Source of the DNA: an uncultured virus (IMG/VR IMGVR_UViG_3300025327_000001)
Taxonomy: Duplodnaviria; Heunggongvirae; Uroviricota; Caudoviricetes
Direction: 5' to 3' (one strand)
Virus record (IMG/VR): IMGVR_UViG_3300025327_000001
Length of the DNA: 64,000 nt
Shown here: positions 1-46,164 of the stretch, piece by piece
How the letters are laid out: the number at the start of each line of letters is the position of its first letter
Numbering within the stretch: the first letter of the stretch is position 1
Position numbers and translations under genes: made by a program
The notes under the pieces: model-generated
Told to the model about the DNA's origin: nothing
Databases searched by the model: none
The model's input: only the letters and a program-made list of their open reading frames with translations

Positions 1-554
1 TGGCAGAAAATCTCCCCGTGTCCCTTGGAATAAATCTCGCCTTCGATATTGTCAACGACAGAAGATTTCACGGGTTTTCTTCCTTGCATGAACAGGAAAA
101 TACTCTTGATTTCGTCCATTTCCTGTTGTGTTACGGGTGAAACGCAAACTTCCGTGCCTTCTTGATGATTCGTGTGTTGAATCTGAATATTCAGAATCTC
201 AGATTCCCACTTTTCGGAATACCGCATGAAAAACTCGAATGTGAAATCCCCCGTCCGCCCGGAAACTTTCCTCCCATTGCGGCAAAGGACCATAGCCCCG
301 ACTTTCAAGCCTTCCCCGAATTGGCCGATTGTGTCCTTTCCCTCTTTCTCGGTCCCACCCATCACAAAATTCTTTCGTGTCAGGGAACCGATGGAATTTC
401 TGACCTTTAACGTGTTATCACGCAGATTAACGGAAATCTCCGAGTGTGTGTCCAAGGCGTTAGCGACGATTTCCCGAATCCCATCTTTTACGCTCCAATG
501 CCGGGCGTAAGTGGGTGAAATGGGCAATTCGAGAATTTCAATCGTTGTGTTCAT
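1..554 (-). CDS. GHKL (HATPase_c) ATPase, runs off the left edge; absent from the supplied ORF track
   Basis: Manual translation from ATG at 554: MNTTIEILELPISPTYARHWSVKDGIREIVANALD...IGQFGEGLKVGAMVL. It has the ExxxNAxD and GxFGxG Bergerat motifs and no stop before position 1. Confidence 0.85.
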   Translation of the reverse strand, partial: MNTTIEILELPISPTYARHWSVKDGIREIVANALDTHSEISVNLRDNTLKVRNSIGSLTRKNFVMGGTEKEGKDTIGQFGEGLKVGAMVLCRNGRKVSGRTGDFTFEFFMRYSEKWESEILNIQIQHTNHQEGTEVCVSPVTQQEMDEIKSIFLFMQGRKPVKSSVVDNIEGEIYSKGHGEIFC

Positions 555-729
555 CAAAATCCCCAACTATTCCGTGTCCAACGAGACAATCGGAAATTGT
601 GTCGGTTCCCACACGTTTTTGTGTTAGACACTTCGGGCAAAAGAATTTCTCACGCGGATATTCTGTGTCCATACACGATCCGCAGGAAATACAATGCCAA
701 TGATAGATTTCTGGAAGTGTTGTGTTCAT
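538..729 (-). CDS. Small zinc-ribbon protein (63 aa)
   Basis: CISC...CPKC; GGAGG before ATG at 729; ATGA overlap with the upstream gene. Confidence 0.7.
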   Translation of the reverse strand: MNTTLPEIYHWHCISCGSCMDTEYPREKFFCPKCLTQKRVGTDTISDCLVGHGIVGDFDEHND

Positions 730-887
730 TCGAAATCCTCCAAAAAGGGAGCACCGCAAAACGGGCATTGTGTTATTTCAGGTGGAAACGGGAAATTGGA
801 GATTGTTTCGTCCGCGTCAATGCAGGAATCGCAGAAATCACATTCTGGATAACCTGTTTCGGAATCGTGTGTTGGATTGCAATCCAT
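726..887 (-). CDS. Small Cys-rich acidic zinc-finger protein (53 aa)
   Basis: CDFCDSC...CPFC; GAGG RBS; TGATG overlap with the upstream stop. Confidence 0.7.
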   Translation of the reverse strand: MDCNPTHDSETGYPECDFCDSCIDADETISNFPFPPEITQCPFCGAPFLEDFE

Positions 888-1069
888 CAAACAACCTCTC
901 TGAATTGAAATGTGGGAGATATGCGTGTTTGGGCCTTTGCAACGTGTCCGATATTCATCAAAACGTGCCCTTCCGCGTGTAATTGCGCGGATCGCTCGTT
1001 TGTGAATCGGCGGAATGTTTCGCAGGTCCAGCAAACGGAAAGAATCTTGGGAACGTGTGTTTTTATCAT
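887..1069 (-). CDS. Small C2H2-like protein (60 aa)
   Basis: CWTC...HAEGH; purine-rich RBS; stop coupled to the next start. Confidence 0.6.
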   Translation of the reverse strand: MIKTHVPKILSVCWTCETFRRFTNERSAQLHAEGHVLMNIGHVAKAQTRISPTFQFREVV

Positions 1070-1216
1070 GAGAAACCCCTTCCCTTTGGTGTGCAATCCT
1101 GGCATGATAGGATTAGACCCCAATTTCTAATTGTGTTCATTAGAAATCGAAGTGTCCAATCTTCGGGAAGCGGGATTGTGAATCCATATCCACAATCTAC
1201 ACACTTTACAGGGAAA

Positions 1217-1342
1217 TCAAGCATACCGAGAAACCTCTGGCATCTTGAAAATCTGTAATCCGCCGGAAAAGACCACTTTTTCGTATTTGTGGTCCCATTC
1301 CCGCTTTAGGGATTTGCAGATTTCTAAGATTTGTTCGTCCAT
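1217..1342 (-). CDS. Hypothetical 41-aa protein (MDEQILEICK...)
   Basis: AGGAG RBS upstream of ATG at 1342. Confidence 0.5.
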   Translation of the reverse strand: MDEQILEICKSLKREWDHKYEKVVFSGGLQIFKMPEVSRYA

Positions 1343-1577
1343 GTACCTTTCTCCTTGAAATTGTTGTTGTGGAATTGTAAAGAATCCCGGTTTTGTGTTG
1401 TTTTCGACATGGCCGGGCGAAGTCCAAACCGGGAAATTCCTTCGCTCGTCTTTGCGGGGGAGGGTTTGTTTGTTTATTTGCAATAACAGGCAGGGAGTTT
1501 AGGCTCCTCCCTGCCCGGATGGATATTTTACGAAGTGTGTTACTCATCCATCATTTTCGCACACTAAGCCCACGGTG

Positions 1578-1585
1578 TATAAATA
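1578..1585 (-). promoter_or_regulatory. Archaeal-type TATA box (TATTTATA) for leftward transcription
   Basis: AT-only box in GC-rich context upstream of the minus-strand operon, flanked by a 9-bp inverted repeat. Confidence 0.55.
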
Positions 1586-2010
1586 TAACGGGAATCTACT
1601 AATCCGGCCCACCGTGGGTGTATGAAACCGGATTTTCGATTTGCCGCCCGTCTCCATTGTACGGATGGAGTAGTGAACGGTAACGGATTTTGTTTAAAAT
1701 CCGCAAAGGGTTTGTGTCCCTTTGTGAGAATGCCCGTTCCATTGGCCAATAAATACCTATACCGGATTTCGGATAGGTGCTGGCGAACCACTTTTTGAAT
1801 ACCGATTTGTGGGATTGCACCACAAACCCCGCGTGTGTTTTTACGGGAATCGGTGTGTGTGTGTGTTGTTTTTTTCACACGCCAAGAAGTTTTCCCCGGT
1901 GTATTGTCCTTGAAAGGACTAATTCGGATGCTATCGTGGCGTGTGTGTTTACCAGCGAAAATTGCTGGAAAATGGAAAAAGGTGTGAGTTTCCGATCCTC
2001 GGTTTCCCGA

Positions 2011-2298
2011 TTACTCGGAAACTTCGGTGTATTCCCCGCCCATCGGTGCGTATCCGATGATTTTGCCGTTTTCGAGCCGGAGGAGTCCCTTTTCCCCAAC
2101 CTCGTTGTCGGCGGCGAAGGATAGCAATTCCTGAACGTGGGAATCGCCCGTTTCCATCGTGGCCCGTTCCTCGCGTGCCTCCTTGAGCCGTGCCTCCAAC
2201 TTTAGCACTTTGGCGTCGATTTCTGCCAATCGTGCCGTTGTTGGCTTCAAGTCGCAAACGAGGAACCAGCCATCCTTATATGCTGGCTTTCGTCCCAT
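2011..2298 (-). CDS. Hypothetical coiled-coil protein (95 aa, MGRKPAYK...)
   Basis: AGGAGG RBS before ATG at 2298; heptad-like LAEIDAKVLKLEARLKEA. Confidence 0.65.
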   Translation of the reverse strand: MGRKPAYKDGWFLVCDLKPTTARLAEIDAKVLKLEARLKEAREERATMETGDSHVQELLSFAADNEVGEKGLLRLENGKIIGYAPMGGEYTEVSE

Positions 2299-2312
2299 TG
2301 TGTCATTTCCTC

Positions 2313-2537
2313 CTAATTCTGTTGTTTCTCCCGGAAAGGCACCGTGAATCCGTGCCCTTCCACCCTTACTTGCGACCATTCGAAAGTATAAATAGATGAA
2401 CAAAAGTGTACATTGTGTGTGTGTGGGGGACCATTCGATGCCTTCGACACGCTTCGACCCCATCTAACCGCTTCAACGGTATCGAATAGGTCATATGTCG
2501 CTCGCATCGCTACAAACCCCTGAGCCATAAGGTACAC
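2313..2537 (-). CDS. Hypothetical protein
   Basis: GGGAGG before GTG, downstream of a TATA box; overlaps the next promoter. Confidence 0.35.
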   Translation of the reverse strand: MYLMAQGFVAMRATYDLFDTVEAVRWGRSVSKASNGPPHTHNVHFCSSIYTFEWSQVRVEGHGFTVPFREKQQN

Positions 2538-2575
2538 TTCTGTTCCTCCCTGCGACCATTCGAAACCTTATATAG
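2371..2575 (-). promoter_or_regulatory. Two TATA promoters each followed by the identical 15-mer TTTCGAATGGTCGCA
   Basis: Plus-strand tgcgaccattcgaaa at 2371-2385 and 2551-2565, next to tataaata (2387-2394) and ttatatag (2568-2575); partial copy at 2429-2438. Confidence 0.65.
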
Positions 2576-2851
2576 TCGTTCCCGAATATTATAACGCTGT
2601 TATAATTCCTATCGGAATAGAAAAATCAATCCTGAGAATTTTAAAGGTCGTATAGATAGCACCTATACTACCTTGAATTTTCGCACGAGCTCGGATCGCC
2701 GCCAATAGGAATATCTGACCAGGGATAATATTCTTGGAATATAATTCCCGAATTATTATTATCGGACGATAAAAACGATCCTTGCAGTTATTATACAGCC
2801 ATGATAGATAATAGCATGGGCACTCTCTAAAAAAATAAGGGGAAGGAGATA

Positions 2852-3712
2852 TTAATACTCACCCTCCTCGTCGGGAAGATCCGCCGGAACGGTTCCACGT
2901 ACATGATACGCGCGGCACGGGGCGCACCAAAATCGGTTCCACGGCATCAAGTTTCTAAACTCCGTTCGGGCCTTCCCACCCCCCAACGTAAAGGGTCGGA
3001 AGATGGGGGAAGCCTTCCCATCAGGGCACCGATGGGGGACGTATTCCACGCGGAATACCGATATTCCCGCATGGCACCCAACGTACCGCATGGGCCGAGA
3101 TACACGTTCCCATCCGACGGTTCGGTTCACGGCTTTCTTGGGTTTCCCCATTGCGTCCCATTCGGTTACTACCGACTTTACAATCCCGGTAGTCAGTCCC
3201 CAATAGGCCAAGAAGGAAAGTCCCTCTTGGTCCATCTTGGGAATTTCGGCTATCCAAAATTCCCGTCGGAAGGGCCTTCCCTGAATCTCCCGGCTTTCGG
3301 CCCGCCTAACGTCGCCTTCCCCATCGGCGCGAGAATGGCTTATCTCCCGGCACCGAAGGCATATCCAAACTGCCGCGCCCGATGCCTTGGACTTCCGAAG
3401 CGAAGCCTCCCGCATCCGGTCCCGCTGACCCATTGAAAGGCGCGCCCATGCGGGAAGGTTATCCCCTTCCCCCGGAAGAATCCATCCGTCCGATGCTTCG
3501 GATTCATGGCTATAAAATAGCCCCACGGATGGGGTCCATTCGCCTTTCAATTCTCGGGGATTCGTATCGGGAACGATAAGGGTCCCATTCACGAATCGCC
3601 CGCGTCCGAGAACCGTTACGATTCGGTCCTTTGGGGGGCGCGCCTTTGCCTTTCGGATGGGTTTGCAGATAGGGCACCCATCCGCCGGAATTGGGCACTT
3701 GCACGTAGTCAT
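2852..3712 (-). CDS. Hypothetical basic Cys-rich protein (286 aa)
   Basis: Long ORF with CxC/CxxC pairs; GGGGGT RBS; ATGA overlap with the upstream gene. Confidence 0.65.
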   Translation of the reverse strand: MTTCKCPIPADGCPICKPIRKAKARPPKDRIVTVLGRGRFVNGTLIVPDTNPRELKGEWTPSVGLFYSHESEASDGWILPGEGDNLPAWARLSMGQRDRMREASLRKSKASGAAVWICLRCREISHSRADGEGDVRRAESREIQGRPFRREFWIAEIPKMDQEGLSFLAYWGLTTGIVKSVVTEWDAMGKPKKAVNRTVGWERVSRPMRYVGCHAGISVFRVEYVPHRCPDGKASPIFRPFTLGGGKARTEFRNLMPWNRFWCAPCRAYHVRGTVPADLPDEEGEY

Positions 3713-3873
3713 TTTATAACTACCCCCTTAAGGGCAAAACCGATTTCCCCGAACGTTTCTAATTCACGGTCTAGTCTTTCTTGAGCCTCCATTGCGACCC
3801 TTACGATAGCCGCCGCGACCCATGCATCTAGCACACTAGCGCCATGCTTTCCATGCCTTCGCCTTCTTGCCAT
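3709..3873 (-). CDS. Small basic protein (MARRRRHGKH..., 54 aa), first gene of the leftward unit
   Basis: AAGGAG RBS; TATA box TTTATAT at 3936-3942. Confidence 0.6.
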   Translation of the reverse strand: MARRRRHGKHGASVLDAWVAAAIVRVAMEAQERLDRELETFGEIGFALKGVVIK

Positions 3874-4629
3874 GTCTCTCGGTTCTCCTTGCGGATGCGT
3901 CCCACGCACCCGACGTACCGTAATCGAACGGGGGGATATAAAGGGGGGGCCGCTTCCTCAAGTCAACGAATCGCTAAGGATGAAATAAGGTACAAAATAG
4001 CGCATCTCTCCATAGGATCGCGCCTATTTCGCATTGCTATTGAATGACACGGCCCCACGCCTCCAATGCACAAAAAGGGGCACTGATTATAGGTCGGACC
4101 TTACTAAAGTCTAGCCTCTCTCGATTCAATCTATACTGCCCCTCCATGAAGGCACCCCTGGCGCAATGACAAAACGCCCATGCGCCGCCTGATCCTACAT
4201 GGACTCGATACCACCATGAAAAAAGATAGCTCCCACCTATACATTTCCCACCTTGGACCTAATTTAATCACGCATTGATACTTTTTGGACATCGGGCCGG
4301 GGGTCATCAAACGGACATATATACCGTATCTTTTTTGGCACCCTGCTATATATACCCAAGACAATGGGACAGGCCATTCATGTAATAATATGCGCTAAGT
4401 GGGGGGGCGTTTCTGTTAGTTAGCGCGTAATTTAGAAAAAGTGGGATAAAGGGATATTCGGTGCAGGTATCTTTTTCTGTTTATTTATATACTGCACGCT
4501 CAAAAATGACTACAGGAACATATAGTAGGAATACTTCCACAACTGATGCAAAACATCTCTTTTGTACTTACATCCAGCGTTATATAGGAGTAACAATTAG
4601 GACAATCTACAAAAATCTCACTGAGATAT

Positions 4630-5208
4630 TTACTTCTCTTTTTGGTGAATAAGTTCTTCAATACTGCCAGATGACCACAACCCAAATAATGCTAATGGAG
4701 ATAATATAAGGACAAGGACAATATACATTAAATCATTAGCAGTAAATAAGAAATAATTCCAAGAGAAGTGGAAGGCCACTGATAACACATATCCTAATAT
4801 ATTGATATTCTTTCCAGTATATTGGAGTATCTTAAATTTGTTAGTTATTTGTGATACGGCCTTCGATGAAATATAGAACATCAAATGACCATTATATATC
4901 AAGCGAGTTAAAAATACATACCAAAACATGATTCCTATAATTAAGGATGTATAATAAGATTCTATGATTATTGAATAAATAATACTCTCTATACCAGAGA
5001 TTAATAAAATATAATAAAGTCCAAATTTAAAATGGAAATTCCTAGTTATAATCCATTTAGTTGTCTCTTCATTTAAGGCTATAAATAATAGGAACATGGC
5101 AAGAGTGGGAGTGAATAAAGAAAGAAACAACTCATTGAACATAGCCATAGACGCATAGGATAGAGTGGCTAAACACAATAACATAATGAATTTATCTAAT
5201 CTATTCAT
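4630..5208 (-). CDS. Multi-pass membrane protein
   Basis: About six hydrophobic segments; GGAGGGTGA RBS. Confidence 0.75.
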   Translation of the reverse strand: MNRLDKFIMLLCLATLSYASMAMFNELFLSLFTPTLAMFLLFIALNEETTKWIITRNFHFKFGLYYILLISGIESIIYSIIIESYYTSLIIGIMFWYVFLTRLIYNGHLMFYISSKAVSQITNKFKILQYTGKNINILGYVLSVAFHFSWNYFLFTANDLMYIVLVLILSPLALFGLWSSGSIEELIHQKEK

Positions 5209-5528
5209 TTACTATTCACCCTCCTTGATATTTGTTTATAGAATGGAAGTGAATTTGTTTTGATGATACTGACTGAGAATGGTATAGGATGTCCCTTTTC
5301 ATCCCGTCTAAAGTAATCTACTATATTATTTATTTTATACTTTCCTTCTATCTTAATCAATACAGCATTCCTGACTCTAGCGATGGATTCAGCAACTTCT
5401 CTATCGTCATAAATAGCATAGAATGGTGTAGATATCTGTCTATTGTTATCATCATAACCTTCGGGGGACCAGAATAAAACAATATAAGTAATTACATGAC
5501 CTTTATTATCTGTATTGTCTATCTTCAC
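5205..5528 (-). CDS. Hypothetical protein (probable GTG start at 5528)
   Basis: AGGTG RBS before GTG; the longer TTG start would overlap the divergent promoter. Confidence 0.6.
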   Translation of the reverse strand: MKIDNTDNKGHVITYIVLFWSPEGYDDNNRQISTPFYAIYDDREVAESIARVRNAVLIKIEGKYKINNIVDYFRRDEKGHPIPFSVSIIKTNSLPFYKQISRRVNSK

Positions 5529-5583
5529 TGAAACACCTATATTTCTATGAGGCTGTTTGAGTAAAAACAATATATGCGAATGG

Positions 5584-5594
5584 TTATATATAAA
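5584..5594. promoter_or_regulatory. Probable bidirectional TATA box (TTATATATAAA)
   Basis: Lies between divergent genes at 5528(-) and 5630(+). Confidence 0.5.
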
Positions 5595-5629
5595 CTCTGT
5601 ATAACTATTCAAGAAACATGGGGTAGAAG

Positions 5630-6199
5630 ATGTCGAGAGTGTCTAAGATACGTCAACTAGACCTAGAGAAAGAAGTCATGGAACTTAGACAGAAAGGTTT
5701 GGGTCCTGTCACAATAGCCAACACATTGAATGAACGACATAAATTAGATGGTCCTAATAGAATAATATTCAGCAACGTGACAAACTATCTAAAGAGTATA
5801 CCTGCAGCAGAAATGAATGTTCTGAAGGAACAACATCTGAAAGAAGTTATATTGGAACCCGCAATGATGTTGAAGACTGATTTGGAAGAATTCAGGGAGC
5901 CCATTGTAAATAAAATTAAGAATATATTGAGCAGCAATAGTAATGTATTATCTAAGACAGAGATTATGTCACTTACAGCATTCGTTGATTTCTATAAGAA
6001 TATCTTTGACCGTATTGCCAAATTAGAGAATATATTAAGTCCGGGCGAACATATAAAGGCAGAGAAGGTAATGATTATAAAACAATACAACGATATCAAA
6101 CAAGTGGTTATGGATACTGTGATGCAATGCCCCAATTGCAGTAAGATATTACAAGACAAACTATCTACGGTTGTTGATGTCGATGAGAATATGCAATAA
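5630..6199 (+). CDS. Putative terminase small subunit
   Basis: N-terminal HTH-like segment, C-terminal CPNC, position upstream of TerL. Confidence 0.6.
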   Translation: MSRVSKIRQLDLEKEVMELRQKGLGPVTIANTLNERHKLDGPNRIIFSNVTNYLKSIPAAEMNVLKEQHLKEVILEPAMMLKTDLEEFREPIVNKIKNILSSNSNVLSKTEIMSLTAFVDFYKNIFDRIAKLENILSPGEHIKAEKVMIIKQYNDIKQVVMDTVMQCPNCSKILQDKLSTVVDVDENMQ

Positions 6200-6344
6200 G
6201 GATTGTTATTTTTTCAAGTTGATTAGGAATAATGTAGGTAATTGTGAGTGTTTTCATAGACTCATCCTATATAATAATGAATGTATAGATGAAACACAGG
6301 CAGATGAATTAGAAGAATTATATAAGAATGATGGAGAAGAATAG
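6183..6344 (+). CDS. Small Cys-containing protein (53 aa, MRICNKDCYFF...)
   Basis: Manual translation; fills the TerS-TerL gap. Confidence 0.45.
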   Translation: MRICNKDCYFFKLIRNNVGNCECFHRLILYNNECIDETQADELEELYKNDGEE

Positions 6345-6345
6345 G

Positions 6346-7878
6346 ATGAATGATCTTTTAATGGATTTAAAAAAGTCCGTTGAATTAAAAAGTAAGATAG
6401 CAGACCCAAGGAATGTGGCTACATACTATCTAGGACATACAATGTGGACATTACATAATGAATTATATAAAACAGTACAGAATACAGATTTACGGCGTGT
6501 CGTTGTTATAGCTCCAAGAGACCATGGAAAGTCGGAAGTATTCACACACACACTACCATTATGGTCTTATTTGAACAACAGGGATATACGCATATTAATT
6601 TCTGCCAAATCTAAAGACCAAGCGACTAAATTCCTCTCAGTCATCAAACAAGACTTCGAAAAAAATGAAAAAATTAAGAAGGACTTCGGGGACCTCAAGG
6701 ACAATCCATGGCAGGATTCTAAGATATATCTGAAACGCAATCCTACTGTATCATTGAAGGACCCATCTGTAGAGGCTGTGGGAGTATTAGGTGGAATTAC
6801 AGGAGCACACTTTGACCTTATTGTATGTGATGACCTTCTGGATGATGAAAATACAAGAACAGAAAGAAAGAGACAAAGTGTTATGACATGGTTCAAAGGA
6901 ACATTAGAACCTTTATTGGAACCTAATGGTCGTCTATTCGTTGTAGGCACACGGAAACATTATAAGGATATGTATCAATATCTCCTGAACAATGATGTAT
7001 GGAAACATCTAGAGTGTCAATATAACATAGCAGGCGATCATAGACGCTGTGGTTATAAATCTATTATACAGGAACCAAGACATGAGATAATATATAATGA
7101 TGAAGGTAAACTAAAAGATATTAAAATCATAGGAGATTGTAAGATATTATTACCAGAGAAATTTACTATACAAGAACTTCTGACTCGTAAAATATCCATG
7201 GGTTCACAGTTATTCAACTCAGAGTATCAGAACGACCCTACGGGATTAGAAGGGTTATTACTGGATGATGAATGGCTTCAGTATTATGAACATATATCAG
7301 ACTTAGATAAATTGATATTCAAATTAAAGGTGATGGCCTTTGACCTTGCTATCAGTGAAAAAGATATCGAGGGAGGAGATTATTTCGCTGGTGTCTTTCT
7401 TGGTTTGACTGATGATAATAAGTTTTATGTATTAGATTATATTAGAGAACATCTTGACTTTCCATCACAGGTAAGGAAGGTCCAATCATGGTTTGACCTA
7501 CAATCTTCTTTCGGTTGGAGACCGGATGTAGTAGTTATAGAGACTAATGCATATCAAAAGGCCCTGTCACAACATCTCAAGGCTGTCAGTACATTGCCAA
7601 TCATAGAAAAGAAGCAGGATAAGGATAAATACACACGTTTATTAGAAGTGAGTCCATACTTTGAGTCTAAGAGAGTATATTTAAGGGATGATATGACTGA
7701 TATAATTGATGAATACAAGATGTTTCCCCGTGGCGACCATGAAGACTTGTTAGATGCTATTCAAATGGCCATGTCTGAGATTATAAAACGTTCTACAGAT
7801 TATGAGTTCTTTGGTTGGCGTCCCGGATGGTTACGTAAGAAAGACGAGAGTGAATATATATCAAGTAGACATATATAG
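6346..7878 (+). CDS. terL: Terminase large subunit
   Basis: Walker A APRDHGKS, Walker B LIVCDD, VGT motif, nuclease AFDLA and HEDLLDA. Confidence 0.95.
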   Translation: MNDLLMDLKKSVELKSKIADPRNVATYYLGHTMWTLHNELYKTVQNTDLRRVVVIAPRDHGKSEVFTHTLPLWSYLNNRDIRILISAKSKDQATKFLSVIKQDFEKNEKIKKDFGDLKDNPWQDSKIYLKRNPTVSLKDPSVEAVGVLGGITGAHFDLIVCDDLLDDENTRTERKRQSVMTWFKGTLEPLLEPNGRLFVVGTRKHYKDMYQYLLNNDVWKHLECQYNIAGDHRRCGYKSIIQEPRHEIIYNDEGKLKDIKIIGDCKILLPEKFTIQELLTRKISMGSQLFNSEYQNDPTGLEGLLLDDEWLQYYEHISDLDKLIFKLKVMAFDLAISEKDIEGGDYFAGVFLGLTDDNKFYVLDYIREHLDFPSQVRKVQSWFDLQSSFGWRPDVVVIETNAYQKALSQHLKAVSTLPIIEKKQDKDKYTRLLEVSPYFESKRVYLRDDMTDIIDEYKMFPRGDHEDLLDAIQMAMSEIIKRSTDYEFFGWRPGWLRKKDESEYISSRHI

Positions 7879-7906
7879 GTATAAAAACATATAAAGGTGA
7901 CTTAAA

Positions 7907-9403
7907 ATGCCTAAAAAGAGAAAGAAAAACACTAAAAAACAAATAAAAACAGATGCACACTTTTACTATCGTTCTCCTGTAGATACGATAGAAACTGGTG
8001 TCAAGTCCCTGTTTGCGAAGGAAGTCAATCTAACCACATTATTGAAAGAGATACGGAGAGATGAATTAGCATATCGTGCCTTGAAGAGATTGAGTGGGGA
8101 TATATTCGATAAGTGGTGTAATATCAAGGCTTCATTTACATCAAGTGGTCAACCAAATCTATCGTTACAACAAGAAGTAGATAAACTAAATAGTAGATTA
8201 TTTGTCAAGGAAACATTCAAACAGGCATGGGAATTAAAAGCAACATCTGGATTTTCTTTGATAGGACTTGGTTGGAAGGATAGTGGTAAGTCAATAGAAA
8301 GTGACCCTGATAATATTACAGATATAGAATATATATATCCATTATCTAGATTCAATATAACGGAGAATAATGGATTAGTCATTGATTATAGACGCTCATC
8401 GCAGACCAAGCAGACTAGTGTAACATATGGAAAGGTGGTTGGAGCTAAAATAAAATTCCAGTATAATGTCGGTGATGTCACATTAGGAACGACTACAGTG
8501 GAAGAAAGGCTGATACCAGCTACAAGATTCTTATTATGGACCAACTTCGCTCCCGGAAGCCAAGACCCATATGGGATGTCTATATTCGAACCTGTATTCG
8601 ATATGTTGACTGCCAAGAAGAATCTAGATTGGGCTTTCGCTGAAGCAGCTTTCCAGTTCGCAGCTAGAAAGTATGTTATCGTCGTTCCATCCAATGCCAC
8701 ACCAGAATATTGGAAATACATTCAGGATAATTGGAAGGACTTTGATTCTCTTACAACTTTCGCAGTTAAGGGTGAAGGACATTCATTTGAAACGTTCGGA
8801 GGAGAAGGACAACTAAATCCAGAACCATATTTTGGATACTATATTACAATGATGGCTTCTGGTCTAGGAGTTCCTAAACCTATTCTATTCCATGAATTGG
8901 AATCTGGTGCTGAATGGGCTTTGAAAGATTATTATGCCAGTATATCAGCAATCCAACGGAATGATGTAGAACCCATGTTATTGGATTTGTATCATCGATT
9001 GCAGGAAGCAGGCATTCTATCTCGTGGCACTATAAATATCGAATGGAATGAATTGATGGAACTGGATGAAAGAGAATCATCATTCGTTACATCTCGACTT
9101 GCATTAGGGCATCGTATGCAAGCAGAAGCAATCAATCAGTATCTGATGGCTGGTCTTGCTGTTGAATTGACTGATGATGGATGGATTAAACGTATATTTG
9201 TCCCTGATGATAGTGAAGAAAACGGGGGGCCATTTATAATATTACCATCAAATAAAGAAGAAAAGGAAGAGACACAAATACCTAAATTACCAGAAGCAGA
9301 AGAAGAACCAGAAGAAAATATACAGAAGGAAATCATAAAGGAAATGACACAGGAGTTATTATATGGCGAAAAAGAAAAAGAAAAGTCCAAAGAAAAAAAG
9401 TAA
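7907..9403 (+). CDS. Portal protein (DUF1073-like)
   Basis: Follows TerL; GFSLIGLG, YGMSIFEPVFD, GVPKPILF, IEWNEL motifs; acidic tail. Confidence 0.85.
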   Translation: MPKKRKKNTKKQIKTDAHFYYRSPVDTIETGVKSLFAKEVNLTTLLKEIRRDELAYRALKRLSGDIFDKWCNIKASFTSSGQPNLSLQQEVDKLNSRLFVKETFKQAWELKATSGFSLIGLGWKDSGKSIESDPDNITDIEYIYPLSRFNITENNGLVIDYRRSSQTKQTSVTYGKVVGAKIKFQYNVGDVTLGTTTVEERLIPATRFLLWTNFAPGSQDPYGMSIFEPVFDMLTAKKNLDWAFAEAAFQFAARKYVIVVPSNATPEYWKYIQDNWKDFDSLTTFAVKGEGHSFETFGGEGQLNPEPYFGYYITMMASGLGVPKPILFHELESGAEWALKDYYASISAIQRNDVEPMLLDLYHRLQEAGILSRGTINIEWNELMELDERESSFVTSRLALGHRMQAEAINQYLMAGLAVELTDDGWIKRIFVPDDSEENGGPFIILPSNKEEKEETQIPKLPEAEEEPEENIQKEIIKEMTQELLYGEKEKEKSKEKK

Positions 9404-9442
9404 AGGAAAAACATGGGGATATTAGAATACCCCAAAGTCTAA

Positions 9443-9450
9443 TTTATATA
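9443..9450 (+). promoter_or_regulatory. TATA box (TTTATATA), probably giving a leaderless capsid-operon transcript
   Basis: About 25 nt upstream of ATG 9475, no RBS. Confidence 0.6.
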
Positions 9451-9474
9451 TCTATATATATTTAATTGAATATC

Positions 9475-11427
9475 ATGCCGTATTCATCGCCAGACGATGT
9501 TCCTGCCAGAGTCAAGGCATTTTGGCGTAATGTAGGAGCTTCTGAAAAAGATAAGCGTCAATGGATTCATGTTTTTAATAGCTGTATGGAACGTTTTGAT
9601 GACGACTCAAGATGTTTTAGGATGGCCAATGGTGTCCTATCCAAGAAATCTCGTGACGAATATATTGAAAATTCAATACAAAGACTAGATACAGGAATGA
9701 CAAAACTGGATACACAGTGGGGTCCGGTATTCCAAGTTCCTGCCATCCTTACACGCGAAGGAGTACAAAATGGCTTCCTTAAAGATGCAGAGGAATTAAA
9801 GGCCACCGTCTGGACAGCGAATATGATTCCTGTCACAGATGGACATCCAAAGGGACAATTTGATAATTTTGTCTCTGCACGTTCCAATATAGAATTCATA
9901 CGGGGATTTATCTCTGACGCACGTTTCGATGAATCTGATAAAACTGTCAAAGGACTTGTAAATATATTTGATACTCCACGTAACAAATTTCTTGTTGAAG
10001 ATATTCAGAGTGAAAGAAAGATAGATGGCTCAGTTGGATTTTTTACAGATGAATTTCAAGCTAATGGTTCTTTCAATGGAATAGAATATGAGGGTGTAGA
10101 ATTAAACATTATATATGATCACTATGCAGTTCTCCCTAAAGGTCATGGAGCATGTAGTCAGAAGGATGGATGTGGATTGGGTCTGAATATGCAAGAAGAA
10201 GAAACAAACGCAGGACATGGAAAAGAAGAGATGCCAGCACCCGGTTTCTCGTCTGTAATGGAATGTATGCAAAAACATATGTGGGAAGCCCGTGATGCTC
10301 AATCACCAGAGGAAATGGCTAGACATATGCAACTTGCAATAGAATGTATGCATAAGAAAGAAGAAGATATACCACCAATAGATGAAAATAAAGGTAATTC
10401 TATTTCAATTTCATTAACAGAAAAGAAAGACCTAGTATTAAAAGAATTGAAAGAAATGGGATTTGAAGATACGGATATACAGGAAATAGACCTTGATTAT
10501 GATGCCTTATATTATATGCTAGGATGTAATACATGTACCGGGGCATTACCAGATATTGATTATATTGTCTATAATGATATACAGTATACATTCAGTCCCC
10601 CTTGGTCTCAAGTGAATAAAACAGATTTACCATCTTCGGCATATATGTATATAGGTGATTCTGAGAAGAAATCCACATGGAAACTACCATATAAAACAAA
10701 CGATGGTAAGATACACTGTGGCGCTATAAGAGCGATTCGACAGATATTAGCAGGTGCTAGAGAGGATGTAAATCTACCATCCGAGGTACGGTCTAATGCA
10801 AAATCATTATCTGATAAACATTGGGCAGTATGTCAGAAAATCAAAGAAAAGGGGGATATAATAATTAATGAAAAATATCAATACAATGACAAAACTGGTG
10901 ACGATTGGAAGGTAGAAACGATTACAACACAAATAAGGGATAATGAGAATCTTATCCAGAAGGTTTTAAATATAAAACAATATATTAATACTACGATAAA
11001 TATGCCGGAAGACAATAAAGAAACACCTGCTCCTGAACCTCAGAAAGAGGATGCAATGAAGATTCTTAGTGATGCGGTTGATTCACTTAAATCAGAAAGA
11101 GACGCACTAAGAGTCCAAGTTGCAGACCTTACAAAAGTAGTTGAGGAATCCCGAAAGAAAGAGACTGATTCTAAGAATAAGGAAATCCGGGACCTTAGAA
11201 ATAAAGTTGTTAATTTGAACATTGCTTACAAAGTCTGGGATGTCGAACATATCATGAAAATGGATGAAGATGGACTGAAGATGGCGGAAAGACTCCTGAC
11301 ACACTTTACAAGCAAGAAAGATTTCAGGGGTGGACAATACTCACAGCACAATGTATCTCTACCATCTGATTTTGCACCGTTAACTGTCGGAGATTTAAGC
11401 AGAAAGCAAACAAAGAAAGGTGAGTAA
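9475..11427 (+). CDS. Prohead protease/scaffold fusion: ChaB-like N-terminus, DUF2213-like protease, coiled-coil scaffold, C-terminal LTVGDL peptide
   Basis: MPYSS..WIHVFNS (ChaB-like); TREGV, PVTDGHP, GSVGF, DHYAVL..GAC (DUF2213-like); located between portal and capsid genes. Confidence 0.85.
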   Translation: MPYSSPDDVPARVKAFWRNVGASEKDKRQWIHVFNSCMERFDDDSRCFRMANGVLSKKSRDEYIENSIQRLDTGMTKLDTQWGPVFQVPAILTREGVQNGFLKDAEELKATVWTANMIPVTDGHPKGQFDNFVSARSNIEFIRGFISDARFDESDKTVKGLVNIFDTPRNKFLVEDIQSERKIDGSVGFFTDEFQANGSFNGIEYEGVELNIIYDHYAVLPKGHGACSQKDGCGLGLNMQEEETNAGHGKEEMPAPGFSSVMECMQKHMWEARDAQSPEEMARHMQLAIECMHKKEEDIPPIDENKGNSISISLTEKKDLVLKELKEMGFEDTDIQEIDLDYDALYYMLGCNTCTGALPDIDYIVYNDIQYTFSPPWSQVNKTDLPSSAYMYIGDSEKKSTWKLPYKTNDGKIHCGAIRAIRQILAGAREDVNLPSEVRSNAKSLSDKHWAVCQKIKEKGDIIINEKYQYNDKTGDDWKVETITTQIRDNENLIQKVLNIKQYINTTINMPEDNKETPAPEPQKEDAMKILSDAVDSLKSERDALRVQVADLTKVVEESRKKETDSKNKEIRDLRNKVVNLNIAYKVWDVEHIMKMDEDGLKMAERLLTHFTSKKDFRGGQYSQHNVSLPSDFAPLTVGDLSRKQTKKGE

Positions 11428-33916: not shown

Positions 33917-35923
33917 ATGGCAACATCTGGTCCTCTTGGCGACCAAATTCAAATGATATTGAATTTGTGGGTCAAAACTACGGATGAACACAAACTCAAG
34001 GAACTATCACGTAGTTTAAATCAACTATCAAAAGCAGAGGACAATATAACTAAAACAACTTCCAGAATGTCCATTGCGACAAACATTGCACGTATCAATC
34101 AGCGTGACTTTGGTTCTACACTGTTGATTCAGGGTATTCAAGCCCGGAGAGCAAGGGAAGAATTGGAACAGGGGTTCTTTACTTTTGAAAAGTTGACACA
34201 GCAAGTTACCGTTTTAGACGAAGAAATGAGAGGTTTGAGAGGTACAGTTGCAAGGACGGCCAACCAGATAGCACAGGATTTTGGTCTAGTACGTGAAGAA
34301 GCTGCCCAAGCACTCGTTAATGTCACAGCCTTGGGTATTGAATTTGAGGATGCCACGAGGATTGTCCGTATTGCAGCCCAAGGTGCCGCTGCGGGTATGG
34401 GTTCGATAGACAATGCAGCTACATTATTGATTACCACGAATAGACAATTCGGGCTATCTATAGAGGATTCCGCCTCCACGATGGCCAAATTAGTTGCCGT
34501 ATCCAACGAAACATCATTCAATATTGACGACATGAAACAAGCTCTATCCACGGCTGGACCCGCTGCGGCGACATTAGGATTTAGTCTGGAAGAAACAGCT
34601 TCCGCCATGGCTATCATGCGAGATGCTGGTCTAGATGCATCAGAAGCAGGTACGGCAATGCGTAATTTCCTTATTCGTATCCAAGACCCGACATCTGAAG
34701 CAGGGAAATTGTTAGAAGAATTAGGAATAGAGACAACGGATTCAGGAGGCAATTTCCTAGATTTGCTTACAATATTGGATAATGTTGGAAAGGGGATGGA
34801 AGATTTAACAGAGGCAGAACGATTACAAACCCAAGCAACCATCTTTGAAATCCGTGGCCAGCAATTATTGAACATTGAGCGTATGCGTGGGCGTGGTCAA
34901 TTAACTGATTTGATTAATGAAGTACAAAAATATAATGATGAACAAGTGGCCGAACATTTCCTATCTGATAAATCGTCTCAAATGACATCGACATTGGGCG
35001 CTCAATTTAATAGGATGAAAGCGAGATTGGCAGAAGTCAATGATGCATATGCCCAAGCATTAATTCCTACAGAAATCTTTTTTATTGATGTACAAGCCAG
35101 ACTAAAAAATACATTCGTTGCATTGCCGGGGCCGATGAGGGATATTGTCGGTGGGTTGATTGTATTAGGTAGTGAATTTGGTGTTGCAGCAGGACAGACA
35201 GCATTGTTATTGGTTAACTTATCTGTATTATGGGAGAAAATGGGTCCAAGGATAATCAAGACATTATCATCGTTGGGAATAAATGTAACTGGTTTAGGAG
35301 CTAAAATTGATGCATTAAAACTCAAATGGAATACAGCGATGTCTGGTATGGAATTCAATACCCAGAAATTCAGACGTTCATTGGCTGCTGTGGGATTGGC
35401 AGCAGCCGCCGCAGTAACAGGAATGCTAGCAATGCAAGAACAAGAACCGGGAATGCGGGCCTTTTTATCAGCATTGACTGGTTTGGAAGCTGCGTTGGCC
35501 GTAACGATGATGATAAGTGCAGTTGCTAAATCTATTTCTGCCCATGCGTTGATTCCTATTGTTGGAGTTGGTATTGGTGTAGCATTGGGGACTTATGCAT
35601 TAGCGCAATTTGCTGCTGCCAAGAGAACAGCAGAAGGAGTAGTAAATTCACAATATGGTGGTCTTTTCCCTGCAAGGCCAGGGAGTGGTACATTAGCCCG
35701 TGTTGGTGAAGGTGCAGGACCTGAGATTGTATCTCCTATACCAACCATGCGAGAGACTTTCAGAGAGGTAATAAGAGAAACAGGTGGTTCTGTGACCATA
35801 AATCCAACTATCCATGTGGCCCCATTCACATCAATAAACAGAAATGCTTTGGATGTTCTGATAAAATCTATGACAAAGGAAACAATAAATGAATTACGAC
35901 GAAGGGGAGTGACCATGAGATGA
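33917..35923 (+). CDS. Tape measure protein (TP901-like core)
   Basis: AGPAAATLGFSLEET..GLDASEAGTAMRN; Ala/Leu-rich helices. Confidence 0.9.
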   Translation: MATSGPLGDQIQMILNLWVKTTDEHKLKELSRSLNQLSKAEDNITKTTSRMSIATNIARINQRDFGSTLLIQGIQARRAREELEQGFFTFEKLTQQVTVLDEEMRGLRGTVARTANQIAQDFGLVREEAAQALVNVTALGIEFEDATRIVRIAAQGAAAGMGSIDNAATLLITTNRQFGLSIEDSASTMAKLVAVSNETSFNIDDMKQALSTAGPAAATLGFSLEETASAMAIMRDAGLDASEAGTAMRNFLIRIQDPTSEAGKLLEELGIETTDSGGNFLDLLTILDNVGKGMEDLTEAERLQTQATIFEIRGQQLLNIERMRGRGQLTDLINEVQKYNDEQVAEHFLSDKSSQMTSTLGAQFNRMKARLAEVNDAYAQALIPTEIFFIDVQARLKNTFVALPGPMRDIVGGLIVLGSEFGVAAGQTALLLVNLSVLWEKMGPRIIKTLSSLGINVTGLGAKIDALKLKWNTAMSGMEFNTQKFRRSLAAVGLAAAAAVTGMLAMQEQEPGMRAFLSALTGLEAALAVTMMISAVAKSISAHALIPIVGVGIGVALGTYALAQFAAAKRTAEGVVNSQYGGLFPARPGSGTLARVGEGAGPEIVSPIPTMRETFREVIRETGGSVTINPTIHVAPFTSINRNALDVLIKSMTKETINELRRRGVTMR

Positions 35924-43170: not shown

Positions 43171-45462
43171 TCACATCCACGTAGACAAATCCATCTGTTT
43201 CGTCTTCTCTTTTGGTTCATCACTCTTCTTCTCTATCAAAATTCCCAGTCTTTTGAACATTGGTACAAACTGACTGTTCCATATATATCTATATTGTTCC
43301 ACTGTTAATTGTATGATTGTATCATCTGCAATGGGTAATATATTCTCTGGTTTCTTCCCTGTCTTTATGAATCCTATCTTCTCTCCCCTATGCATTATCA
43401 ATTTACCCTGTTCTTCCAATATCCGTGCTGCTCTTAAATGTGCTGGTAATACCTCATAATCATCTGCATGTTTCCCCAATGCTTTATACATGACTAATTG
43501 TTGGTCTAACGCACCAGATGCTAATTTATTCCAGTATTCCTCTGTATATTGATATAACTGTTCTATAGTATATCCATCTAATATCTTCTCCAATACTTCT
43601 TGTTGTGCTTGTCTCTTCGCTTCACTTGTATCATGTCTGACTATTTCAAACCCCTTTATCAATAATTTGTTTGTAGGACCATCACGCCATGTCATTCTAG
43701 CCACATACTTCTTTTTTGTTCCCTTCCCCTGTATATTGGCTGGAACATACATAACAGAACATAGTTTATCGATATCCAATTTAAAATGAGATGGATATAT
43801 ATCAGAAATTGCATGTAGATAATTCTTAGTCTCTGCTGTTAATTTATTCGCTAAATCCTTGGCTTTGTCTATATCCAAGTCTGGTAATTGCAAGAATACA
43901 CTATCTGTATCACCGCCAATGACTCTTATATTCATAGATTGTAGTGTTTCATCTAGGAATTTAATCACCATCTGGCCAGTCAGCGTGATATTCTCGGCTA
44001 TGTCCTTATTGAAATATCTGCTATAGAACGACCCGATTACACCATAGATACTATTCGCTAGAACCTTATAGGCATTGTAGGTTGCATCGGCTACTATATA
44101 TTCATCAGATGTTGGCGATAATTCCATCTTTTTCTCCCGCCATTCATTCCGCGTTTTCAATACATAGGAAAGACCCTCAGAAAATACACTCTTTGGCGTG
44201 GATACGAAACTTCCCCTGCCTATGGGAGATTTGATATCACCGATATTATCATCTCTATATGTCTCTGGCCCTATGTTAAATGACATTACAATGGTCGGGT
44301 ACAGAGCATTGACATCAAGAACGGCTATGTTATTATGAACTCCGGGAATGGGATTTAAGACCATGGCCCCTTCATACTTTTCCTCACGTTCATCCTTATC
44401 ATCCTCATATTGTTGTTTAGTGGGCCATATGACTCTTTCCTTTCTATTTACAGACAGACGTAATATCAAGCCATCTACTGCCACAGAGTTATTGAATTCT
44501 TTCTTATTCTGTTTATGTACCTTCATTAAATCCCTGACATTGGTGTGGGTGATATTAGCAATATTGAATACGATATGGACCATATTCCATTTCTTGTCCA
44601 AGTCATATATGATTCTAACATCATCTAGGTTATATTCTTTTAATGTATTGATATCATGTTCGAAATAATACAATAAATCCTTGATATTTATTTTTCTCTT
44701 CCTAGTTGGTAATTCTTCTTTATCTGCTATATGCTCCAGTGAGAACATGTCCCTTTGTATCAATAATATAAATTTGTACACGGCCCTCAAATCGATATGA
44801 ATATGATTATACCACTCATATTCTATATCCAATATCCTACAACGATTAATCAAATATGGCCAATCGAAGTTATTACCATTGAATGTACATATGACTGGGT
44901 ATTTATCGATGAAAGCAAGACAGTCTCTAATTAATTGCGTCTCATTCCTATCGGAATAAAAGTATTCCTGCCCATCGTTTGTCTTGACAGCAATGGATAA
45001 TATACGTTTCAGGGCCTGTTGTTCGTCGGGTATCCCATCTGTAGGGTCTGTCTCGATATCTATGAACAGCCATTTCTTAGGCAATTGCACACGCCAATCA
45101 AGGTCAATCATCACCCTTCTATTATATGGGACATCCGCTTCAAAGGTATTTGTGATGCCTATCAATTGTCTTATCCTTGGAACTACACTAGGCGATGGCG
45201 TATTTATTTTAAGTAATTTCTTTCCTTGGTATGTAAATGGGACATCTTCGATTTCTATGATAGATGGAAGATTCATATTCTGGGCAATATCAGAATATGC
45301 TAAGAAATATGGTTTGACTGGTAATGGTATTTCCTGCACAGGTAATCTATAACCATCATCATCTGTCGTATATAATCTGACTACAGGGTCCTCATATTCA
45401 TTAAAATGCCAATCAATGTGGTAAAGATTGTTGGGTGGTTTCTGGTTTATCATAATATGCAT
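43171..45462 (-). CDS. polB: Family B DNA polymerase with 3'-5' exonuclease
   Basis: DIET, FNGNNFD, YNLDD; DVNALYPT, KVLANSIYG, GDTDS, KKKY. Confidence 0.95.
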   Translation of the reverse strand: MHIMINQKPPNNLYHIDWHFNEYEDPVVRLYTTDDDGYRLPVQEIPLPVKPYFLAYSDIAQNMNLPSIIEIEDVPFTYQGKKLLKINTPSPSVVPRIRQLIGITNTFEADVPYNRRVMIDLDWRVQLPKKWLFIDIETDPTDGIPDEQQALKRILSIAVKTNDGQEYFYSDRNETQLIRDCLAFIDKYPVICTFNGNNFDWPYLINRCRILDIEYEWYNHIHIDLRAVYKFILLIQRDMFSLEHIADKEELPTRKRKINIKDLLYYFEHDINTLKEYNLDDVRIIYDLDKKWNMVHIVFNIANITHTNVRDLMKVHKQNKKEFNNSVAVDGLILRLSVNRKERVIWPTKQQYEDDKDEREEKYEGAMVLNPIPGVHNNIAVLDVNALYPTIVMSFNIGPETYRDDNIGDIKSPIGRGSFVSTPKSVFSEGLSYVLKTRNEWREKKMELSPTSDEYIVADATYNAYKVLANSIYGVIGSFYSRYFNKDIAENITLTGQMVIKFLDETLQSMNIRVIGGDTDSVFLQLPDLDIDKAKDLANKLTAETKNYLHAISDIYPSHFKLDIDKLCSVMYVPANIQGKGTKKKYVARMTWRDGPTNKLLIKGFEIVRHDTSEAKRQAQQEVLEKILDGYTIEQLYQYTEEYWNKLASGALDQQLVMYKALGKHADDYEVLPAHLRAARILEEQGKLIMHRGEKIGFIKTGKKPENILPIADDTIIQLTVEQYRYIWNSQFVPMFKRLGILIEKKSDEPKEKTKQMDLSTWM

Positions 45463-45685: not shown

Positions 45686-45917
45686 CTTTAATACCATCCA
45701 TTTTCATAAGGCAGAATAATAGGATATTAATACCATCATATATATCATCATATTTCTTATCCAAGAAATCTATATCTATCCATCTGGCTCTCTTCACTTT
45801 GACCAAAGCATATGCCAACAATTCCTCTAATGTGAATTCTTGCCAGATATCACCATAAGGAGATTTCTTATGGATTTCCAAAGCCTTTTCAATATGTTTC
45901 AATATATTATCGTTCAT
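45633..45917 (-). CDS. Nucleotide-modification-associated (Nmad1/DUF1599-like) all-alpha protein
   Basis: K..YGDIW...KVKR...DDIYDGIN pattern. Confidence 0.55.
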   Translation of the reverse strand: MNDNILKHIEKALEIHKKSPYGDIWQEFTLEELLAYALVKVKRARWIDIDFLDKKYDDIYDGINILLFCLMKMDGIKDGQQGNEEKTKEREIQI

Positions 45918-45989
45918 GCGGCACCCCCGAGTCGAACAGGGACCTTCTCCTTGGAAGGGAGATATGCTGGCCATTGACACCAGTACCGC
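45917..45989 (-). tRNA. tRNA-Gly(TCC)
   Basis: Acceptor gcggtac/gtgccgc, anticodon arm tctcc-cttccaa-ggaga, TTCGA T-loop, no CCA. Confidence 0.9.
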
Positions 45990-45990
45990 A

Positions 45991-46062
45991 TGGACCTAGC
46001 CGGAGTTGAACCAGCATCTTCAGGTTGCAAACCTGATATGTTTCCATTGACACCATAGGCCC
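45991..46062 (-). tRNA. tRNA-Ala(TGC)
   Basis: Anticodon arm tcagg-tttgcaa-cctga; G3:U70 Ala identity pair. Confidence 0.9.
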
Positions 46063-46075
46063 GTATTATTTTTGA

Positions 46076-46146
46076 TGGAATCGTCCGGAATCGAACCGGG
46101 TTCATACGGTCTTCAGCCGTGCGCTTTCCCATTAAGCTACAATTCC
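46076..46146 (-). tRNA. tRNA-Phe(GAA)
   Basis: acgg-ctgaaga-ccgt anticodon arm; ccgg-ttcgatt-ccgg T arm. Confidence 0.85.
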
Positions 46147-46164
46147 TTATATTATCATCATTAG

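Follow-up and report, generated by a model that had tools for sequence, protein, structure and literature searches.

The first 4 kb of a 64,000-nt stretch of DNA from an uncultured virus of the Caudoviricetes (IMG/VR record IMGVR_UViG_3300025327_000001; hereafter the window, meaning this whole stretch) form an island of raised G+C content (GC) that contains far more hairpins than its word composition, or the proteins that it encodes, can account for. The window covers most of the genome of a tailed double-stranded DNA (dsDNA) phage, the whole of which is ~95.5 kb long at ~36% GC and comes from soil metagenomes. Rightward genes run from 5630 to ~42.6 kb, and minus-strand genes occupy 42.7 kb to 64000 as well as the part to the left of 5612; the two gene arms part at 5612/5630, at the minimum of the cumulative GC skew, which lies near 5 kb with the maximum near 42 kb. 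By this layout the island (1–4 kb) is the promoter-proximal part of a leftward arm of small orphan genes, an arrangement that fits early expression of that arm. The explanation we favor, with a probability of roughly 0.4, is that the island is the genuine and fast-changing head of the leftward orphan arm, that its sense transcripts fold, and that their folding most likely serves a post-transcriptional role.

Hairpin excess in spacers and genes

A first-pass annotation of the window had placed the GC of this region at about 50–60%. The contrast with the rest of the genome stood, since GC per 1-kb window over 1–4000 is 0.462, 0.453, 0.487, and 0.563 and afterwards 0.28–0.44, and since 200-nt windows lie at 0.41–0.58 up to 4200 and at 0.27–0.37 beyond 4400. 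The level was overstated: 50–60% is true only for ~2000–2200 and 2850–4200, and the first 2.8 kb are mostly at 41–51%.

Perfect hairpins were defined as stems of 7 bp or more with loops of 3–30. Positions 1–4000 contain 22 of them, compared with 6.5 ± 2.8 expected from dinucleotide shuffles, none of 100 of which reached 22; for stems of at least 8 bp the count is 9 and the expectation 1.6 (0/100 shuffles). Observed and expected counts in control stretches were 9 and 9.5, 5 and 6.3, and 15 and 8.0. Expectation for the island stayed at 7.1–7.7 when 2-, 3-, 4-, or 5-let composition was preserved (0/100 each), and word composition is ruled out as the cause because the excess persists in the 5-let shuffles. 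When 19 tiles of 4 kb were compared (16 from the window and three from the left flank, the last one of 1.9 kb), the island tile was the sole outlier with a z of 8.6, the remaining tiles scoring between −1.3 and +2.2. The nine stem pairs and both 14-bp palindromes listed by the first-pass annotation are perfect where it had placed them, and its 7-bp stems at 1174, 1806, 3041, 3168, and 3452 are likewise present. The arms of all 22 hairpins differ in sequence; nine of the 22 lie in the spacers NC1 and NC2 (Table 1) and 13 lie inside genes. Predicted folding energies also separate the island from its surroundings. RNAfold in 120-nt windows gave a mean z of −1.03 on the plus strand and −1.43 on the minus strand over 1–4100 (67 windows per strand), and of −0.22 and −0.21 outside the island, sampled to 42.8 kb (81 per strand).

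The claim that the hairpins extend into protein-coding genes was borne out by shuffles that preserve both the protein and its codon usage. With synonymous-codon shuffles as the reference, the 13 stems in the nine island coding sequences (CDS) compare with an expected 5.25 ± 2.24 (1/200), whereas the genes for the large terminase (TerL; 2 versus 2.65) and the portal (4 versus 2.9) were flat. Within g8, which encodes the 286-aa open reading frame (ORF) named in the annotation, 8 perfect stems compare with 2.1 (2/200 codon shuffles) and 18 stems of 6 bp or more with 7.3 (0/200). Mean local minimum free energy (MFE) in 120-nt windows, expressed as z against synonymous shuffles, was −3.5 for g8, −3.2 for g5, −3.4 for g6, and −2.2 for the 5′ part of the GHKL gene, compared with +0.2 for TerL, −0.3 for the portal, and 0.0 for the gene at 5205–5612. 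The strongest structure signal in the window comes from the ORF-free spacer NC1, for which the minus-strand RNA is predicted to fold at −210.9 kcal/mol against −164.8 ± 5.7 (z −8.1; 20 shuffles) and the plus strand at z −3.1; the second spacer, NC2, has a fold z of −4.4. The hairpin excess is therefore non-random, and its persistence over dinucleotide, 5-let, and synonymous-codon shuffles supports the annotation's proposal that the segment is selected to fold.

Searched against Rfam 15, positions 1–4600 gave no match at E ≤ 1 and the whole window matched only 4 transfer RNAs (tRNAs); with no Rfam match and no tRNA in it, the GC-rich, ORF-poor stretch is not explained by ribosomal RNA or another known RNA. 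Outside the island, the minus-strand gene at 4630–5208, which encodes an AT-rich 192-aa orphan, also has a low MFE z (−3.2) with an ordinary number of perfect stems (1 versus 2.5).

Authenticity, variation, and origin of the segment

The nearest IMG/VR record (G001, 59,308 bp) corresponds to window 4114–63421 and lacks the island, and the possibility of a chimera between a GC-rich fragment and an AT-rich phage was therefore worth testing. Such a join would also agree with the depth of the island, which is ~0.6–0.7 of that of the right flank in 4/4 Logan runs with a ~1.5-fold rise to the right around 3881–4116, and with the assembly breaks that cluster in the same interval (contig L003 ends at 3976, G001 starts at 4114, pieces of X1 end at 3913 and start at 3983, and pieces of X3 end at 3881 and start at 4116). 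Against it, an exact search with a 40-mer of the island found two metagenome contigs, L004 and L003, and these two further independent assemblies both join the island to AT-rich phage DNA on its left. L004 (95,501 bp) is 100% identical over window 1–10139 and embeds the island between AT-rich phage DNA on both sides; window position 1 is its base 84,977, and 9.9 kb of AT-rich phage DNA can be read to the left. L003 (8,166 bp, from a different metagenome) has one end at window 3976, covers the island from there to its left edge and a further 4,190 bases beyond, and is 99.85% identical to L004. In the Logan contigs the island and flank occur together in 4/4 soil or sediment runs at roughly proportional depth, and the drop in GC at 4200–4500 is bridged by G001, by an X1 piece (3983–5748), and by an X3 piece (4116–4998). 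Stretches left uncovered in runs X5 and X7 were excluded from the evidence. At the left edge there is no breakpoint, only a gradient in third-position GC (GC3) within the GHKL gene from 0.56–0.62 to about 0.40, and a recurrent ACACA word is common to island and flank. The segment is real: the chimeric join that the first-pass annotation had named as a refutation of its reading is not borne out, and a chimeric assembly is close to refuted.

The low depth of the island and the contig ends at 3881–4116 could instead reflect diverged alleles that fall under a 95% likeness limit, or else a physical end of the genome or a site of packaging, and the interval may be such an end or site or be hypervariable. 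Breaks are frequent in Logan contigs, and the end cluster rests mainly on two JGI contigs; all terminus and junction statements are based on assembled contigs.

Island genes are coding and vary within the population. Single-nucleotide polymorphisms (SNPs) between strains (X1, X7) fall at third codon positions in 5/6 cases in g8 and 4/5 in the GHKL gene, by our own frame arithmetic, which indicates that both genes are coding and under purifying selection. A diverged g8 allele with 88% amino-acid identity keeps the frame, and the two relatives of g8 found among 1.84 billion representatives, both distant (E 7e-11 and 2e-6), conserve its cysteine pairs; the SNP pattern, the frame-keeping allele, and the conserved cysteines rule out g8 as a spurious ORF. 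The exact g7 protein is encoded on 3 contigs in a public collection. Loss of an entire gene is seen in an X1 contig (depth 6.7) that joins 563 to 740 and skips 176 nt, removing g2 exactly; the deletion is flanked by 18–19-nt direct repeats that are the ribosome-binding site (RBS)/start modules of g2 and of the GHKL gene.

Such gene-sized insertions and deletions would also suit a foreign mosaic, in which the island, or at least its part B (2852..3873, g8 and g9), came from a GC-richer phage or host and the hairpins were imported or mark recombination joints. Part B stands apart from the left-hand part A in composition and vocabulary: its GC is 0.53–0.58, none of its 14 Thr codons is ACA compared with 66% in part A, it encodes Arg by CGG/CGA rather than AGA, and g8 is nearly an orphan. 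It also lacks the ACACA word, which marks part A strongly. TGTGT occurs 30 times on the plus strand of 1–2450 and ACACA once, so that ACACA has a coding-strand rate of 12.2 per kb, compared with rates per kb of 1.5 for the late block, 0.6 for the block at 42.7–64 kb, and 0 for 2451–4100. On the other side, this word spans window 100–2430 (minus strand) and is common to part A and the AT-rich left flank out to about −6234, composition changes gradually at the left boundary, within a single gene, searches of viral and genome collections turned up no donor, and acquisition alone leaves the excess over synonymous and 5-mer shuffles unexplained. We regard a foreign mosaic as a rather unlikely explanation; foreign origin of part B is plausible and is compatible with, not exclusive of, the explanation we favor.

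RNA or DNA level, and hot zones in distant phages

To separate folding of RNA from pairing of DNA, helices that need G·U pairs were counted independently of the perfect stems. Against dinucleotide shuffles, the island has 7 G·U-containing helices of 9 bp or more on the sense strand compared with 2.8 expected (0/40), and 3 compared with 2.9 on the antisense strand; lowering the limit to 8 bp gives mildly raised counts on both. No sense-strand G·U effect was seen in control stretches of the window.

Distant phages with a member of the GHKL family have hairpin hot zones too. This family (phrog_6077, MORC-like GHKL with a C-terminal HExxH motif) has 243 confirmed stretches in IMG/VR, from which 80 loci were drawn; nine of these hold full-length relatives with 25–28% identity, several with hairpin-rich tiles, and none of the 9 has a GC-rich island upstream of its GHKL gene. 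Four complete or near-complete phages, G002, G003, G004, and G006, with GHKL proteins at 26–34% identity, were compared, and each has one localized hairpin hot zone (Table 1). In G002, the GHKL homolog (9 versus 2.1 stems, z 5.0) and the adjoining UvrD-like helicase identified by Pfam (17 versus 4.1, z 6.5) exceeded codon shuffles and were the only ones to do so among the 14 long ORFs tested, from a set of 22 with at least 400 aa; the rest scored −0.6 to +2.2. Counted at 9 bp and above, G·U helices exceeded expectation on the sense strand alone in three of the four relatives: G002 (14 versus 4.6 and 12 versus 4.3), G003 (17 versus 7.7), and G006 (6 versus 3.2). It withstood codon shuffles of the two G002 genes, with G·U helices at 20 versus 10.2 (0/100) in sense and 6 versus 8.2 in antisense. 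This sense-only excess is indirect evidence that favors structure at the RNA level. In the island the strand signal is weak, and the RNA level, though favored, is putative there.

Several results weigh against this interpretation. Within the island the two strands score much alike: the local 100-nt fold z of NC1 is similar for the minus RNA (−5.9) and the plus RNA (−4.8) and remains at −4.4 and −5.0 with DNA parameters (40 shuffles each). Within the nine CDS, the test against codon shuffles shows no sense-strand surplus of G·U helices: those of at least 8 bp number 8 versus 8.6 in sense and 13 versus 7.9 in antisense, and those of at least 9 bp number 4 versus 2.4 in sense. The pair next outside the stems is unbiased (4 versus 4), and the next inner pair gave 8 versus 0 in a post hoc comparison. 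Covariation lends no support, because the island copies obtained are 100% identical and the island has no DNA relative in phage records (searched with blastn), IMG/VR, or genome contigs; the TerL relative L006, 89% identical in DNA, reaches leftwards only to window 5022 and does not include the island. Terminator-like hairpins followed by a T-run are at the shuffled level over 1–6400 (6 versus 6.6 ± 2.4), and NC3, the spacer at the right end of the island, is not unusually structured (fold z +0.36). The hot zones cannot be counted as homologous at the distance of these relatives: tblastn found no further protein shared with the four of them except TerL in G006. Their zones are not GC-rich, except mildly in G002; that of G004 is weak (z 3.3) and has no strand bias, that of G006 lies 55 kb from its GHKL gene, and part of the hottest tile of G002 is an AT-rich repeat tract resembling a replication origin.

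The strand symmetry of the island's own signal makes a DNA-level or mutational origin a serious rival, unlikely as we hold it to be. On that account the hairpins arose near a replication origin, either as single-stranded DNA signals of the primosome or single-strand-initiation type or as selection-free by-products of template switching. The excess is made of perfect Watson-Crick stems, and the scores of NC1 change little between strands or when DNA parameters are used. The island lies next to the point where the coding strand switches and the cumulative GC skew is lowest, and the hairpin-rich genes of G002 adjoin an AT-rich iteron-like repeat tract. Template switching is itself reported to give rise to hairpins and to maintain them (PMC8794818). 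Neither DNA pairing nor template switching, however, would be expected to leave a sense-only G·U excess such as that of three of the four relatives and, by the dinucleotide test, of the island. In addition, stems of 7–9 bp with loops of up to 29 nt are poor cruciform formers, and the origin near the island is only putative.

The first-pass annotation had read the island as the first-entering or first-expressed DNA, folded to hide from RNA-guided or single-stranded RNA-cutting defense or acting like the leading region of a plasmid. The structure excess is real and the position promoter-proximal, and the two JGI contigs and several Logan pieces that end within 3881–4116 would fit a physical end beside the island, from which packaging, by analogy with lambda, would run towards the terminase genes. 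Window position 1 is not such an end, however, since it falls mid-gene in the GHKL gene and has further sequence to its left in the 95,501-bp contig, and Logan breaks are widespread, leaving the end cluster mainly to the two JGI contigs. Conjugative plasmid leading regions (Samuel et al. 2024, PMC11541004; NAR 2026, PMC13478746) offer a parallel as an idea, that of a first-acting segment that differs in sequence composition and contains folded single-strand elements. They are reported to enter as single strands and to carry recognizable anti-defense genes, whereas the terminase and portal of this phage imply dsDNA packaging without the single-stranded entry of conjugation, and no anti-defense gene was recognizable in general family scans, which included no dedicated anti-defense library. 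LbuCas13a has been reported to be effective irrespective of expression timing or target location (PMC9712115), which also speaks against shielding of an early segment. We consider this reading very unlikely; defense shielding and a leading-region role are pure conjecture.

Under the explanation we favor, that of an early arm head whose sense transcripts fold, the island would be the promoter-proximal, "hyperplastic" head of the leftward arm, beside the divergence at ~5.6 kb. Its minus-strand transcripts would be unusually structured, with NC1 and NC2 as hairpin arrays and with g8, g5, g6, and the 5′ part of the GHKL gene bearing more hairpins than protein and codon usage require. The arrays may stabilize or process early transcripts and may keep long untranslated stretches closed to Rho and RNases, and the raised G+C would make stems stable within an AT-rich genome. 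A wider proposition, to our mind somewhat unlikely, is that some large dsDNA phages possess an early-arm head with hyper-structured sense messages selected in both CDS and long leaders, that such heads recur around the MORC-like GHKL gene in phages with next to nothing else in common, as a convergent or very old RNA-level strategy (against RNases, Rho, or RNA-guided immunity, for example), and that NC1 is a new large structured phage RNA.

The usual reading of a hairpin-rich early region in a phage is that of an intergenic string of promoters and terminators, but here the excess lies also inside CDS, and it is confined to ~4 kb of a 95-kb genome. A keyword search of the literature for hairpin enrichment in phage early or coding regions and for RNA structure that evades RNA-guided defense did not find this pattern described, which is no proof of its absence. 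If selection on RNA is responsible, the island would represent a class of phage messages in which folding is as important as coding, and the hairpin z-score per tile would provide a sequence-only signature for early control regions of uncultured phages. If template switching is responsible, the island would be a clear natural case of that mutation process shaping genes.

The closest described system is the promoter-early stem-loop (PeSL) cassette of the hyperplastic regions of T4-type phages (Arbiol et al. 2010, PMC2839356). The island resembles it in having small nonconserved, putatively early genes in a stem-loop-rich region and, to a lesser degree, in gene-sized gain or loss between short repeats, the one event here, that of g2, having taken place between 18–19-nt RBS/start modules rather than promoter-stem-loops. 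Membership fails on the repeated unit and on terminator character: 1–4500 contains no repeated promoter-plus-stem-loop unit, only a 44-nt repeat in two copies and a 10-mer in three, both in NC2, and terminator-like T-run hairpins are not enriched. The island differs further in having 13/22 of its hairpins within CDS and in lying 10–20 points above genome GC. Comeau et al. 2014 (PMC4122927) reportedly also deals with the PeSL cassettes of T4-type phages. In T7-type early operons, RNase III processing hairpins stand between genes at few, defined intergenic sites. The likeness to such an operon lies in a promoter-proximal early polycistron with message-stabilizing or processing hairpins, the mechanism we deem most likely here; the difference is that ~ten hairpins fill a 668-nt spacer and others lie in genes, and processing is here only predicted. 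NC1 also resembles the large phage RNAs GOLLD and ROOL in being ORF-free, phage-borne, 600–700 nt long, and extreme in predicted structure, but it has no Rfam 15 match and may be an operon leader or spacer rather than a separate RNA gene.

Genes, spacers, and neighboring features

The features of the island, the landmarks of the window, and the hot zones of the four relatives are collected in Table 1. Summed over the gene models, the coding share of 1–4629 is ~57%.

Table 1. Features of the window and hairpin hot zones of four distant phages (hot-zone positions refer to the phage named)
Feature	Position	Strand	Description
GHKL gene (P0008), 5′ 552 nt	1..554	minus	444 aa; runs 780 nt further left (L004:9121-10455); 3 perfect hairpins
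g2	538-729	minus	63 aa; paired CxxC, zinc-ribbon-like
g3	726-887	minus	53 aa; paired CxxC, zinc-ribbon-like
g4	887-1069	minus	60 aa; C/H pattern
g5	1066-1224	minus	52 aa; paired CxxC, zinc-ribbon-like
g6	1217-1342	minus	41 aa
NC1	1343..2010	minus	668-nt ORF-free spacer; ~ten consecutive hairpins; strongest structure signal in the window
g7	2011-2298	minus	95-aa orphan; AGGAGG ribosome-binding site; GC3 0.65; 9-bp hairpin 1987-2023 spans the stop codon
NC2	2299..2851	minus	553-nt ORF-free spacer; AT-rich tract 2570-2850; fold z −4.4
g8	2852-3712	minus	286 aa; Cys/Arg/Trp-rich orphan; conserved CxxC pairs; 8 perfect hairpins
g9	3709-3873	minus	54 aa
NC3	3874..4629	minus	756-nt ORF-free spacer; GC falls from ~0.53 to 0.33
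Large terminase TerL	6328-7878		
Portal	7907-9403		
Tape-measure protein	33917-35923		
Family-B DNA polymerase	43171-45462	minus	
Four tRNAs	45916-46236		
G002 hot zone	128-132.8 kb plus 1-4 kb		z 8.8 and 13.0; parts adjacent across the terminal repeat; abuts GHKL gene and arm divergence point
G003 hot zone	104-116 kb		z 3.4-4.6; abuts GHKL gene and arm divergence point
G004 hot zone	40-44 kb		z 3.3; 7-11 kb from GHKL gene
G006 hot zone	16-20 kb		z 4.6; 55 kb from GHKL gene

The product of the GHKL gene combines a MORC-like GHKL N terminus with a C-terminal HExxH (WLM-like) motif and matches phrog_6077 at E 2e-46. The annotation had called it a recognizable GHKL ATPase; the MORC-like signal is present, but the protein is only weakly recognizable, with Pfam HATPase_c_3 at E 0.002–0.012, below the curated 25-bit cut-off, and at E ≤ 1e-3 in 2/9 family members. 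A profile of the family matched MORC2/MORC4 at E ~0.004 and a WLM protease at E 0.0018. Closer relatives of the GHKL protein (P0009–P0011) stand at 38–53%. Invariant in the family alignment are E28, N32, D35, G77, G80, and G82, the first three and the last three of which we take to be the N and G boxes, respectively, and H416-E417-H420.

Upstream of the GHKL gene, g2–g6 are five mini-genes that are tightly (translationally) coupled through overlapping stops and starts; none has a Pfam or PHROG match at threshold. The AlphaFold2 model of g8 has a mean predicted local distance difference test (pLDDT) score of 30.8 and is unusable, and the ESM Atlas gave no usable match (best 0.75). ACACA often takes the form RACACA(A/C), and several copies coincide with a start codon or directly follow one (ATGAACACAA three times); it also lies in 4 hairpin loops. 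Guesses as to its role are a CA-rich translation enhancer or a site for an RNA-binding protein; a start-codon signal is not established, ~15/36 sites lying within 10 nt of an ATG compared with ~12 by chance on a rough estimate.

NC1 has no paralogous copy in the 73.9 kb examined (window and left flank). NC2 contains GACCATTCGA in three exact copies at 2374–2383, 2429–2438, and 2554–2563 (55 and 125 nt apart), two of which closely follow −10-like TATA boxes of the minus strand; no other exact copy occurs in the window or L004 (73.9 kb). The same spacer has its 44-nt direct repeat at 2352–2395 and 2532–2575 and minus-strand sigma-70-like sites at 2412–2385 and 2829–2801. It is a candidate promoter/operator region for g7, in which GACCATTCGA may be an operator or the core of a phage-specific promoter. 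Of the sigma-70-like sites in the region, the best, with matches at 10/12 positions, lies in NC3 (4113–4086) and is directed into the island. Between NC3 and the arm divergence point sit the AT-rich genes 4630–5208 and 5205–5612. To the left of the window, every ORF in the 9.9-kb flank is small and on the minus strand, and 16/17 scanned flank ORFs have no PHROG family.

The AT-rich tract of G002 (L088:3230-3520) consists of ~300 nt of AT-only imperfect repeats with units like AGTATATATATAC and TATTAAGTAT. It is iteron-like, lies within a 2.2-kb ORF-free stretch between the arms of this 132.8-kb phage, and adds to its hot zone. The UvrD-like helicase that follows the GHKL homolog in G002 bears a Top1-type zinc ribbon.

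A host scan using a GMP-reductase-like gene gave as its sole match a 32% hit in a Bulleidia metagenome-assembled genome and was uninformative. None of the sequencing runs listed is of RNA. The 95,501-bp contig (Ga0209341_10000060) stops at the base that matches window 10,525 and the window continues beyond, which means that the source of the window is circularly permuted relative to that contig and suggests a circular or terminally redundant genome of ~95.5 kb; the CheckV completeness of 63% for the 59.3-kb G001 is consistent with that size. Near the far end of the window, a 434-aa ORF (62678–63982, minus strand) has a LAGLIDADG_3 domain (E 7e-6) and adjoins a KaiC/RecA-like ATPase signal and a weak DNA-primase PHROG match; it may be an intein or homing endonuclease within a replication ATPase.

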